Part shown: in pieces, positions 57,467 through 63,063 of the stretch
How the letters are laid out: each line of letters opens with the position of its first letter
How positions within the stretch are numbered: the stretch's first letter is position 1
DNA from: an uncultured delta proteobacterium
Lineage (GTDB): Bacteria; Desulfobacterota; Desulfobacteria; Desulfobacterales; SG8-13
Length of the DNA stretch: 64,000 nt
Assembly (NCBI GenBank): GCA_963848135.1
Contig: CAWKCK010000007.1
Span: forward strand, 68,121-132,120
Reading direction: 5' to 3'
The notes under the pieces: generated by a model
What the model was told of the DNA's origin: nothing
Database searches by the model: none
The model's input: only the letters and a program-made list of their open reading frames with translations
Translations under genes and position numbers: made by a program

Positions 57467-58321
57467 CTATAGGCTGCCGATTACCCTTTTTAATCTATCC
57501 GGGTTGAATTTTCGCGATACAAGCGGTCTATCAGAAAGAGCGGCAATTTGATCCGTAAAATTCGGCATTTCTTTCTGAAAAAATATTCCGATGGGTATCT
57601 TGCTTTCATCCCGGGTGGCCATCATCAAGGCTTTCTCATAATCTTCCGGATCATGCTGACTGTCGTCAAGAGGATTGACGCGCTGCTTGTACCATTGGTA
57701 AATATCCTTGGGGTTAAATGAAACACAGGGCTGAAGTATATCAATGATACTAAACCCCTTGTGTTGAATGCCCGCCTGGATCAATTCACTCAGATGTTGG
57801 CCGTTTCCCGAAAAACCTCGGGCGACAAAACTTGCCCCTAAAGAAAGGGCCAATAGTATCGGCTTCAGAGGGGTAGTTATCACACCCTTTTGCTGCATCT
57901 TGGTCACCATACCGATTTGAGCGGTTGGTGATGCCTGCCCCCTCGTCAATCCGTAAACCGTATTGTTATGAACCAGTACGGTAAGATCGATATTCCGTCT
58001 GATGGCATGCAGTAAATGATTACCCCCTTCTGCATAACAATCCCCATCGCCGGTGTTAACTACTATGGTTAACTCATGATTGGCGATTTTGGCACCTGTG
58101 GCCAATGGCAGCGCGCGTCCGTGAAGAGAATGAAAAAAATTACACTTCAAAAAATGGGGGGTTTTTGCCGCTTGTCCGATTCCTGAGACAACTAAAATTT
58201 GATGCGGTAAAATTTTTAGTTGAACCAGCGCTTCCTGCATGGCTTTCAGGATGCCGAAATTTCCACAACCGGGGCACCACTGGTTGTCATAATCGGATTC
58301 GAAGTCCTTGATACTGACCAT
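57467..58321 (-). CDS. 2-oxoacid:ferredoxin oxidoreductase beta subunit (TPP-binding)
   Basis: WCPGCGNFG, SGIGQ, HGRALPLATG, GDGD, NNTVYGLTRGQASPT and QPCVSFN motifs. Confidence 0.95.
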   Translation of the reverse strand: MVSIKDFESDYDNQWCPGCGNFGILKAMQEALVQLKILPHQILVVSGIGQAAKTPHFLKCNFFHSLHGRALPLATGAKIANHELTIVVNTGDGDCYAEGGNHLLHAIRRNIDLTVLVHNNTVYGLTRGQASPTAQIGMVTKMQQKGVITTPLKPILLALSLGASFVARGFSGNGQHLSELIQAGIQHKGFSIIDILQPCVSFNPKDIYQWYKQRVNPLDDSQHDPEDYEKALMMATRDESKIPIGIFFQKEMPNFTDQIAALSDRPLVSRKFNPDRLKRVIGSL

Positions 58322-60028
58322 GGGTTCACCTCAAATGCTCGCTGAATGTCCTTTGCAATTTCGATCGGGAAAAACGGTCGCCCATCATATTTTAAAATGG
58401 CTCCGGCGGCACGAAGACCTGTTTGCATCTGAATGATCTGCCCTAACTGCGCGCCACTATTTTGCTCTACCATGAAAAAAGACCGTGCCTTTTGAAGCGC
58501 TTCGGTGGCGAGTTGGATAGGAAAGGGCCACAGATCGCCAAAGATTACCGCTCCTACGTCAATCCCATCAGATCTTAGGATGTCAACTGCTTCTTGAATG
58601 GCGCCTTGCGTCGATCCCCAACCAACCAGAAGAACGTCGCTATCGCCGAAATAAACTTCGGGAGCCTGCATTTCATCGAGCATATCCTTTAAGCTTGGCA
58701 TTGCGCTTATCAACCATTTTTATCCGTTCAGTGCTGTCTTCGGTAATGTGACCGTCTTCAGAGTGCTCATCGCTACAAACCATGACCAGTGCTTTTCCGC
58801 GACAAGGCAGTGCGCGGGGCGACACGCCTGACTTTGTCACTTTAAAGCGTCTGTAATTGGATGGATTTTCCAAATCTTCATCGGCCGCATAAAACAATTT
58901 TACAGTCGAAGGTATGTCAAAAGACTGTTCCGTGGTGAACCATGAGTCGCAAAGCAATTGGTCAGCCAGGATGATAGCAGGCACCTGATATTTATCCGCG
59001 AGATGAAACGCACGGGCAGTGGTAGCATATGCATCGTGGACGTTTCGTGGAGCAAACACAAAACGAGGAAATTCATCTTGCGAAGCGTGGATAACAAATA
59101 GTAAATCCGCCTGTGCTGTTCTCGTTGGCAAGCCGGTGGCGGGACCCGGGCGTTGCGCGTTAATGATGACAATGGGAGTTTCGGTAATTGCAGCGAGTCC
59201 CAATGCTTCGGTCATCAGACAAAAACCACCCCCGGATGTGGCGGTCATGGCTCTTACCCCTGCGAAGGCTGCACCGATCGCCATGTTTATCGCAGCGATC
59301 TCATCCTCGGCTTGCTCGACCACCAGGGGTAAATGGTCCATCTGTTCAACGAGATGGCCCATAATACCGGTGGCCGGGCTCATGGGGTAAAAAGCCCCGA
59401 AACGACAATCTGCTGACAAAGCCCCCAAGGCGATGGCCTCGGAGCCTTCAAACAGTCTTCCTTTGGATTTGCCGGAGACGCTTTTAAAAACATCTTCATA
59501 GGCCGCCGTTTTGACGAACTGATAACCTAGCCGGGCCGCTTTCAGATTCATATTTAAAATTGCTTTAGATTTGGCGGCAAAGCGCTGCGTGAGGACCTCG
59601 TCAATGAGTTGCTTCGGCGCTCCCAGCAGTGCCAGGCATACACCTGCCGCCACGGTGTTTGACGTAATCTTTCCGCCGGCATCCTGAGCGAGCTTCTCAA
59701 AGGGTACGCCCTTCAATTTGTCATCCGTAATATTGGCGTCCTCTTCGATGAGGATAATGCCGCTCGATACGACTTCATTTTTGTGAAGCGTGTATGTATT
59801 TTGATCCAAGGCAACCAGTATGTCGATCGCATGATGCGGCGCATGAACAGGTTGATTGCTGATTCGAATTTGAATGAAGCTGTGACCGCCGCGAATGCGA
59901 GATTCAAAATCATTGATGGCCATGACGTAAAGACCGGCTCGCTGGCAAACCCAAGACAAAAGACTGCCAACCGTTTGAATACCTTGACCAGCCTCTCCGC
60001 CGATTTTAATCGTTATATCAAATGCCAT
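58246..60028 (-). CDS. 2-oxoacid:acceptor oxidoreductase alpha subunit (gamma-alpha fusion); one +1 frameshift (~58689)
   Basis: GGEAGQGI, SRIRGGHS, YPMSPAT, QAEDEIAA, TSGGGF, RPGPATGLPT and DEH, then GWGSTQG and KYDGRPF in the next frame. The 3' end is uncertain because of the overlap with beta. Confidence 0.92.
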
Positions 60029-60200
60029 CTGTTAAACCTTTCTCAAGTCAATGGTTCTTGGTCTCATGGCAAAATTATTACTTTAGAGCTTTTTTCTTTA
60101 GGGAGCTTAAAACGGCCATCATCCATACATAGGAATTACCCCAAGGTTTAGCAACCGTTTATCTTGCAGGCCTCGAAATAATATTTAAATATATCAGGGG

Positions 60201-60464
60201 TCGGGGAGTTTTTCCCGCAAATGCTGAACCAGAGCGGAGGGAGTGATCAGCAGCGAAAGCGTGCACTGTCCGAATGCATTAGGCAACTTTGGGAAAGAAC
60301 AGCGGGAACCCCGGTTATCAGATTCGGATCACAATAAGTGAATCAATCTCAACAGTTTTATATCATTATGAAATCTGTTCTTTCCTTAGGTTGCCTTATG
60401 CATGAGTTTGCGCGCTGAAGTCGCTGATTATTCCCTCCGCTACCGGATGGTGAAAACTCCCCGA
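60201..60464. repeat. Long imperfect inverted repeat (arms ~60201-60302 and ~60375-60464)
   Basis: Matching blocks include TCGGGGAGTTTT/AAAACTCCCCGA, AGCGGAGGGA/TCCCTCCGCT and GGAAAGAACAG/CTGTTCTTTCC. Confidence 0.75.
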
Positions 60465-60721
60465 GGGCTCAAATATATAGGCCATGTTTTGCTTTTCCTA
60501 TTACGCTACCGCAGACGCGCGAAAATACTAGACGAAAAAATAGGGTCAGATGGCAATACCGAACCCGTGTCATCGGAGATGATTGAATCAGTGCCGCAAT
60601 GATGCGCACAACGATACTGATACAAAGTCTTGGTTTTCTCTTGGATGAATATTCGCTACAAAATCAATACGGACATCCAACAAATGGAGTCGGTTATACT
60701 TATTTGAATGCCCTCATCTGA

Positions 60722-61279
60722 TTACAGTTTTTGACCGCCAATCCCTGAATACACCGCCTTGCATATTCCCGATACGCCCCCTTTCACGCCTTCTGGATTC
60801 TTGAAGCCTTCAGTTGACAGAAGACTTTCCATGTATGCCTTAGACGGGGCTAAAGACGTATATGCCTTGTCGACATCATTCCGGGTTTTTATCAGAAAGA
60901 GCCATCCCCGTTCATATGGATCATCGCTTATTAGTGACAACCCTTTCCGAAGGCCGTTGTTGTATTGGATGGTTCCTCCAACGGGTGGATCAATATACAA
61001 AATTTTTCACGTGATGGCAAAGACCACCGAGTCACCGGATTCGATGACGGCACCATTATCGGCTAGCTCGTCTAAGTCCTTGATCCTGCACATGAGAACC
61101 AGCGCGGGTTGGGTGAATCCGAAAACAATATCTTTGTCGTTTCTCTTGGCCCAGAGTCCCTGCTTCACGTGGTAGCGCAGGTCTATTAATTCAAGACGCT
61201 TTGGGCTTGATGCGGCTTTTCCGATCCGTGAGATTTGTTCATAAATGGCGTCTTTGAATTGTCTGTTTGGATTCTTCAT
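60722..61279 (-). CDS. Chimeric ORF: ArsR-type N-terminus fused to a GcvH/lipoyl-domain-like protein, with in-frame TGA at 61007-61009
   Basis: MKNPNRQFKDAIYEQISRIGKAASSPKRLELIDL (ArsR/SmtB start) | RYHVKQGLW...FAIT*KILYIDPPVGG...DDPYERGWLFLIK (GcvH fold). The two ORFs are in the same frame. Confidence 0.7.
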
Positions 61280-61470
61280 GTCCACCTCTCAAGTAATCAA
61301 TTAACCTATTGAATACTTACTCCAAACCACCATAAGCGTCAAGCGTGTTTCGATATGCTGTTATTCGGACGGGAAAACCGGAGCTTCACATTTGTACTTG
61401 CGATCGCTGTGTTAATGCGTTAACTTTCTGAACACTAAAAGCGTAAACTATTTGAACAGAAAGGCCGCCA

Positions 61471-62851
61471 ATGGACAGGCAGAACTTGAATCAATACTGG
61501 AAAACCGTTGTCGACACGATTCAGGACGGCGTGATGATCGTAAACCCAGAAGGCACAATAATTTCGGTCAATCGAGGATTCGAAGAAATTACCGGTTACG
61601 GACGCGATGAGGTTCTCGGCCAACCGTGCACGATCCTAAATTGCAGTTCCTGTGAGATCGCCCGTGAAAAAAACGGCTGTCATTGGTGTGTGATGTTTGA
61701 ACGCGGGAATCTGAAAAAGCAAAAGTGCCTGCTCATTCATAAAAGCGGTCGTTCGGTTCACGTCGTAAAAAATGCATCGGTCCTAAAAGATGAAAACGGT
61801 GAGGTAACCGGTGCCGTTGAGACCATGACCGATATCACCGACCTGATCGACAAGGAAACGCAACTCGAATTTTATCGCCGAGAACTTTCGGCTGAAGACA
61901 AATTTTACGGCATCATCGGCATGTCCGCACAAATGCAGCAACTGTTCGAACTGATAACCAATACCGCTCAAAGCGATGCACCGGTAATCATTTTCGGTGA
62001 AAGCGGCACCGGTAAAGAGCTAGTGGCGCAGGCTATCCACGAAGCAGGGCATCGCAGCCATAAACCATTCGTCAAGGTAAACTGTGCGGCTCTGAACGAA
62101 TCGCTCCTGGAAAGCGAGCTTTTCGGGCACGTTAAAGGTGCATTTACAGGTGCATATCGCAACCGAGAGGGTCGCTTCGAGGCTGCCAACGGCGGTGATA
62201 TTTTTCTTGATGAAATCGGTGACTTACCATTATCGACCCAGATCAAGCTGCTGCGCGTGATGGAAGACAAGATCGTTGAGCGTGTGGGTGACCAGAAGCC
62301 GATAAAAGTCAATGTGCGCACCATCTCTGCGACAAATCGAAACCTGTCGGACTTGATTCGCAAAGGTGAATTTCGCGAAGATTTTTATTACCGGATCAAC
62401 GTCATACCCATCCGCGTACCGGCGCTGAGAGAGCGTCAGCGATGATATACCGTTGTTGGCCAGATCTTTCTTCAACCGTCTTCGGCTCAAAAGCGGTAAA
62501 AATATCAGAGGGATATCCAACGCCACCTTGGATGTTATGCTGCGATATAAATGGCCCGGCAATGTCAGAGAACTCAAAAGCGCCCTCGAATTCGCTTTTG
62601 TTTCTTGCCAGAACGCCAACATAAACCCGGAACATTTGCCCTTTAAACTGACCGGCATCGACATTCCTCAGGATCAGGAGTTGCTCGCCGATAATTTGGC
62701 CGACATAAAAAAACAGCGTCTTATTGCGGCATTGCGCTCAACCGCTGGCAATCAGTCCAAATCGGCCAGGATATTACGCATGTCCCGCACCAGCGTCTGG
62801 AAACAAATGAAACAGTTCAATCTAAAACCAGAAGACTTTAAAACCGTCTAA
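61471..62851 (+). CDS. PAS-domain sigma-54-dependent activator; one +1 frameshift (~62439)
   Basis: PAS with C-x4-C-x3-C...C-x2-C, GESGTGKE, GAFTGA, FREDFYYRI, then WPGNVREL and HTH (NQSKSARILRMSRTSVW) in the next frame. Confidence 0.9.
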
Positions 62852-63063
62852 GGGTGGTACGATAATTGCTGTGCATTATAGCTGAGTAAGCCTGGCTTTA
62901 CCTCCATTTTGCCACGACACTTACTCATTCATCCAAGACCCCAGCCCTCAGGGGCCGCTCCCTAAGGGCTGGGACTTTTATGGCGTTATCGTTATTCCCC
63001 GGAAAGAAAGTCACCTGTTATAGGGATAACGTCGCATATTTTTAGGATTCAGGAGAACACCGA

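Follow-up and report, generated by a model that had tools for sequence, protein, structure and literature searches.

The open reading frame at 60722..61279 is very probably a pseudogene and not the gene of a new selenoprotein: it is best understood as the remnant of a gene for a GcvH-related protein (gcvH-rel) from a redundant five-gene cluster, fused by a deletion to the start of a regulator gene of the ArsR type and interrupted by a G-to-T nonsense change. The frame lies on the minus strand of the window, by which we mean the whole stretch of 64,000 nucleotides that was analysed. A nonsense codon, a 2.7-kb deletion fusion and the loss of an invariant pair of glycines are found together in this one gene, and its own lineage bears the marks of relaxed selection.

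Read on the minus strand, the remnant frame (arsR'::gcvH-rel', 61279..60722) opens with an ATG at 61279, ends with a TAA at 60724..60722 and has an additional in-frame GTG upstream, at 61285. It contains a single in-frame TGA, at 61009..61007, without which it would be open for 185 codons. Both peptides quoted in the preliminary description of this DNA, FAIT-TGA-KILYIDPPVGG and GVSGICKAVY, are found exactly in the minus-strand translation. When the TGA is read through, the product matches the Pfam domain GCV_H (PF01597) with an E-value of 1.7e-7 and the NCBIfam model NF045810 ('GcvH_rel_desulf') with 208.1 bits over profile positions 15-167. Since the cut-off of the latter model is 150 bits, the resemblance to GcvH-related proteins is real and far above chance, and the GcvH/lipoyl-like domain that had been proposed from the letters alone is confirmed. 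The match to glycine cleavage H protein proper is much poorer, the models TIGR00527 and NF002270 giving 31.1 and 32.8 bits, respectively, which is below their cut-offs of 115.85 and 117. Full-length members of NF045810 are uninterrupted proteins of about 169 aa with an N-terminus of the type MAVIEKFLG..., and the remnant is not one of them.

The position of the TGA relative to the lipoyl-type lysine can be fixed through the intact paralogue encoded elsewhere in the same genome. HMMER aligned this protein to solved GcvH structures (E-value of 5e-10 for PDB 1onl), with the conserved lysine of the family paired with the lipoyl-lysine; the TGA, which falls in a column typically occupied by glycine, is accordingly one residue ahead of the lipoyl-type lysine. 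It had previously been placed either at the lipoylated lysine or one residue before it, and only the second of these positions agrees with the structural alignment. The conserved lysine codon itself (AAA, 61004..61006, minus strand) occupies the column following the TGA, where 118 of 121 aligned sequences have Lys. As this codon is downstream of the stop, it would remain untranslated.

The N-terminal part of the frame has a different origin, which the earlier reading of the sequence missed. Codons 1-34 (MKNPNRQFKDAIYEQISRIGKAASSPKRLELIDL; 61178..61279, minus strand) belong to an arsR-rhodanese gene: in tblastn searches they are 82% identical to residues 1-34 of a 223-aa ArsR-rhodanese protein encoded in the paralogous cluster, and identity to the start of this type of regulator, which combines an ArsR HTH with a rhodanese domain, ranges overall from 70 to 82%. 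Similar matches occur in G003, G006, G013 and G027, and the intact paralogue of the regulator carries the Pfam domains HTH_5 and Rhodanese. The homology is not confined to coding sequence, as blastn extends it (79% identity to the paralogue) up to 61319, so that the 40 nucleotides ahead of the frame (61280..61319, minus strand) represent a retained arsR leader, with a ribosome-binding site (GAGAGGTGG) ahead of the ATG. The 34 codons are the only part of the arsR-rhodanese gene of the window to have survived. Homology to the GcvH-related family sets in immediately afterwards, with RYHVKQGLW, and this core (60725..61177, minus strand) begins at family residue 19 and continues to the C-terminus, the 18 conserved residues with which family proteins open (MAVIEKFLGxxVEVPExx) being absent. 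We also considered whether the 34 residues might be a native N-terminal extension of the family, and rejected this possibility: all 169-aa members start with MAVIEKFLGxxVEVPExxRY, while the residues in the window match arsR. One longer family member, P0120, merely has an upstream start.

Comparison with a genome of the same genus, G003, reveals what was lost between the two parts. In other genomes the arsR-rhodanese gene is located about 3 kb upstream of the gene for the GcvH-related protein, and at the intact G003 locus (L037) the order is sigma-54 activator, arsR-rhodanese, rhodanese, dsbD-thioredoxin, orf83, gcvH-rel and 2-oxoacid:ferredoxin oxidoreductase (OFOR). The closest metagenomic relative, L047, shows the matching order rhodanese-dsbD-orf83-gcvH-rel-OFOR. 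Positions 61177-63000 of the window, which hold the sigma-54 activator and the start of arsR, align with L037 3102-1272 (92.5% identity); positions 60719-61184 align with L037 6309-5844, and the OFOR region at 57573-60198 aligns with L037 9001-6375. The intervening 2.7 kb of L037 (3103-5843), with the remainder of arsR, the rhodanese gene, dsbD, orf83 and codons 1-18 of gcvH-rel, are missing from the window. The junction (GACCTG|CGC, 61177..61184, minus strand) is a stretch of 8 bases that can be aligned with either flank of the intact locus in G003. GACC occurs at each of the two ancestral deletion ends, which suggests a microhomology-mediated event. Identity across the wider region 57573-63000 is mosaic, the sigma-54/arsR part being 92.5% identical to G003 and the OFOR part 83.6% identical to G003 and 91.5% identical to L047, which may point to recombination across the locus in the past.

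The core of the remnant has also changed in ways that are not seen in its relatives. The codons at 61085..61090 (minus strand) are TGC AGG and encode Cys-Arg, in place of a Gly-Gly pair whose two positions are 98% and 100% conserved in the family. Pairwise dN/dS proved uninformative as a test of decay, since the value for the remnant against its relatives (about 0.23) is close to that between intact relatives (0.21), and branch-wise counts were required. The ordinary pairwise ratio does indicate that selection acted on the gene over most of its past and, together with a frame that is still mostly open and gives a first impression of good preservation, that the lesions are recent. In a relative-rate test of the window against L047, with G003 as the outgroup, the window copy had 16 unique amino-acid changes and L047 had 1 (p=0.0003); the counts for the neighbouring OFOR alpha gene were symmetric (10 versus 7). 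The branch leading to the window copy carries 24 nonsynonymous and 13 synonymous changes, as compared with 6 and 18 on the L047 branch (Fisher p=0.004). The decay may not be limited to this gene. The sigma-54 activator (PAS, AAA+ and Fis HTH; 61471-62851, plus strand), transcribed divergently from the remnant, contains one extra base near 62436-62445 that breaks it into two frames, whereas its orthologue in G003, 98% identical, is a single ORF of 459 aa. This would imply that the whole unit is decaying, the activator likely being a second pseudogene within it. Two observations point the other way: the arsR'::gcvH-rel fusion is in frame and preceded by a good ribosome-binding site, as if it were expressed (although the chance of an in-frame fusion is 1 in 3), and the genome has the machinery for selenocysteine (Sec), with candidate selenoprotein genes 4-9 kb from the remnant.

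The gcvH-rel remnant is separated from the OFOR operon by an inserted MITE-like repeat of 299 bp (60184-60482). Its ends are inverted (GGGGAGTTTT), and AAATATAT flanks it on both sides. The repeat is present in the genome in 28 copies of at least 250 nt, 17 of which have at least 90% identity, and is absent from the equivalent spot in the closest relatives L047, L048 and L050.

These observations are consistent with the following scenario. The ancestor would have possessed a five-gene cluster between the divergent sigma-54 activator and the OFOR operon. A deletion of approximately 2.7 kb, its ends probably in the short GACC microhomology, fused arsR codon 34 in frame to gcvH-rel codon 19; four genes were lost, and the fifth, gcvH-rel, was left without its conserved N-terminus. 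Either after or before this deletion, a G-to-T change would have converted the glycine codon GGA ahead of the hairpin lysine into TGA, and the leftover frame has been accumulating amino-acid changes, including the loss of the invariant Gly-Gly. The remnant is probably still transcribed, since the arsR promoter and ribosome-binding site have been kept. At most, translation would yield a 90-residue peptide with neither the lysine hairpin nor the C-terminal half of the fold, and with no Cys-bearing tail. The function lost at the remnant is presumably carried by the intact paralogous cluster.

The preliminary description had weighed a selenocysteine on the swinging-arm loop against a simple nonsense change, and the residue found at this site in homologues bears directly on the choice. 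A search at the protein level yielded 713 homologues, almost all of them 169 aa long; in the best 120 of these 713, the column of the TGA is occupied by Gly in 104 (87%), Ala in 6, Lys in 5, Ser in 3, and Arg and Thr in 1 each, and by Cys in none. In the closest relatives, two metagenomic contigs with an amino-acid identity of 78-80%, the codons are ACG GGA AAG, as against ACG TGA AAA in the window, so that a single G-to-T change accounts for the TGA (61007..61009, minus strand). Because protein databases cut selenoproteins at UGA, the survey was also carried out at the DNA level, by six-frame searches reading through stops. Among 40 relatives, 14 strong family copies were recovered, and the 13 other than that of the window are free of internal stops; likewise, among 401 genomes of the class, 31 copies exceeded the cut-off, and none of the 30 others has an internal stop. 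All other family copies in the relatives use GGN at this column. The exact 90-aa truncated product has no match on public record, and JGI metagenomes gave no hit for the UGA context with N at its first base or for a degenerate pattern spanning the deletion junction. The proposal that stood is thus a nonsense change from GGA to TGA in a gene undergoing decay, given the GGA of the nearest relatives, the deletion of the 5' end together with four upstream genes, and the relaxed selection; the selenocysteine did not withstand the tabulation of the aligned residue.

With selenocysteine incorporated, the swinging-arm lysine of the H-protein fold would have this residue as its neighbour, and the protein might have been neofunctionalised with its new N-terminus. 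Sec decoding should be possible in this cell, since the genome encodes SelB (374 bits, above the cut-off) and one tRNA-Sec. Candidate selenoprotein genes are present in the same window, and the GcvH-related family sits among genes for thiol and sulfur handling. There is, moreover, a small stem with a CGUU loop about 26 nt downstream of the UGA. The stem described previously (TATTG...CAATA enclosing TCCA...TGGA) does exist, as part of a weak and broken hairpin at about 60960..61000 (minus strand), but a role as a SECIS element is not tenable for it. The 52 bases after the TGA fold with -6.2 kcal/mol, which is no better than shuffled sequences (z -0.55, and z +0.67 in another fold), and the same positions in Gly-coding relatives adopt the same shape with greater stability (-9.5 and -7.7 kcal/mol). 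The shape is therefore not specific to the UGA; the stem simply follows from the conserved coding sequence (ILYID...IQYN) and was not formed together with the stop codon. By comparison, two candidate selenoprotein genes of the window, those for HdrL (CAM-U-VISPK) and a rhodanese (U-A-U), possess compact GC-rich hairpins of -13.6 and -12.2 kcal/mol. Rfam gave no match in 59900-61500 at E-values of up to 1. Selenocysteine at the UGA was rejected on account of the Gly column, the lack of any second TGA-bearing copy and the hairpin shared with Gly-coding relatives. It is also hard to reconcile with a gene that has lost its conserved N-terminus and invariant Gly-Gly and is evolving nearly neutrally, so that we regard it as highly improbable. 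The titles and abstracts listed by a literature search on GcvH with selenocysteine or selenoprotein describe no GcvH-type selenoprotein. A fusion expressed from the arsR promoter with its UGA read as Sec would be a newborn selenoprotein that arose from a Gly rather than a Cys codon, and the odds are heavily against such a birth. A second SelB-like gene is present in the genome at G000:C15:43659-45516 (L040, L043), where the selB model is matched in two adjacent pieces (13-105 and 106-580), possibly because this is a paralogue that has been split or frameshifted.

Alternatively, a variant code (NCBI table 25) or a suppressor tRNA might cause the UGA to be translated as glycine or some other amino acid. 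The aligned residue of the relatives is indeed the Gly that table 25 would give. However, TGA terminates 927 of the 2333 ORFs of at least 300 aa in the genome and 13 of the 27 long ORFs in the window, and is the commonest stop of long ORFs, on which ground the variant code was discarded. In addition, the sole tRNA with the anticodon UCA is tRNA-Sec, and the other family copies of the relatives, as noted above, all use GGN. The likelihood of such a reading is close to nil. A less extreme possibility is that the T of the TGA is an error of sequencing or assembly and that the true codon is GGA, which would restore an uninterrupted arsR'::gcvH-rel fusion of 185 codons. A single base separates the TGA from the GGA of the closest relatives, and the rest of the fusion frame is open. 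Against this, one base has been substituted for another, with no homopolymer problem at the site, and the flanking OFOR genes are intact across 2.6 kb, which argues that the assembly is not error-ridden. Besides, the independent lesions of the same gene (deletion fusion, Gly-Gly to Cys-Arg, nonsynonymous excess) show a gene already out of selection, in which a true nonsense change is to be expected. We therefore consider an erroneous base unlikely. Were the T an error nevertheless, the codon would specify Gly and not Sec, and the deletion fusion, the Gly-Gly to Cys-Arg change and the relaxed pattern would remain; the fusion would have come from the deletion all the same, and would most likely lack a function or be no more than a new chimera. 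A pseudogene interrupted by a genuine nonsense codon is accordingly the reading that we retain.

The intact paralogue, a 169-aa GcvH-related protein, is encoded on G000:C12 of the same genome within a complete cluster (G000:C12:103544-107084; L036 3045-6588). The cluster comprises genes for the ArsR-HTH plus rhodanese regulator, a rhodanese, a protein with DsbD_TM and thioredoxin domains, an 83-aa protein (orf83) to which no Pfam model matched, and the GcvH-related protein, which has the conserved Lys at the lipoyl position and the C-terminal motif GVSGICKAVY. The same order of the five genes is found in G003 (L037), G006 (L038) and the metagenomic L047, and in the G003/L047 lineage the cluster adjoins the OFOR genes. 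In L038 (G006:C30:199000-208000, same genus), the tblastn matches are split in the rhodanese, dsbD and gcvH-rel genes, which may reflect frameshifts or assembly indels. The five genes may together form a thiol/sulfur relay with a carrier of the lipoyl type. This NF045810 cluster is conserved and uncharacterised, and may deserve a study of its own.

As both the GcvH-related family and this kind of event are already known, the present analysis is mainly a correction. A UGA codon in a sulfur/thiol neighbourhood tempts one to call a selenoprotein, and here the call is wrong; a 'GcvH-like Sec protein with ArsR leader' consequently drops out of any selenium-dependent relay model for this neighbourhood. 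What the remnant has in common with bacterial selenoprotein genes is a UGA in frame and a genome equipped with SelB and tRNA-Sec, but it differs from them in the absence of Cys from its homologues, of UGA conservation and of a distinct hairpin such as the compact ones (-12 to -14 kcal/mol) of the HdrL and rhodanese candidates. With respect to NF045810, the remnant is a member that has been broken. The hairpin context FAITGKILY and, at the C-terminus, the motif GVSGICKAVY are recognisable, whereas 34 residues from an ArsR regulator stand in place of family positions 1 to 14-18, a TGA in place of the Gly before the Lys and Cys-Arg in place of the invariant Gly-Gly. The GcvH-related family as a whole belongs to the same fold family as GcvH (PF01597, TIGR00527, PDB 1onl) and has its conserved Lys at the place of the lipoyl-lysine; it differs in having 18 N-terminal residues of its own and, at the C-terminus, a tail of about 45 residues that contains Cys, and in its location in a thiol/sulfur gene cluster rather than beside gcvT or gcvP. 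In this respect a parallel may be provided by the LbpA lipoate-binding proteins of the sulfur-oxidising sHdr system, which are GcvH-like, single-domain proteins encoded amid sulfur-transfer genes. Although the five-gene cluster, unlike the setting of the sHdr LbpA, contains no hdr genes, the intact family, as distinct from the remnant, resembles LbpA in its gene setting, being likewise encoded among rhodanese and thiol-disulfide genes.
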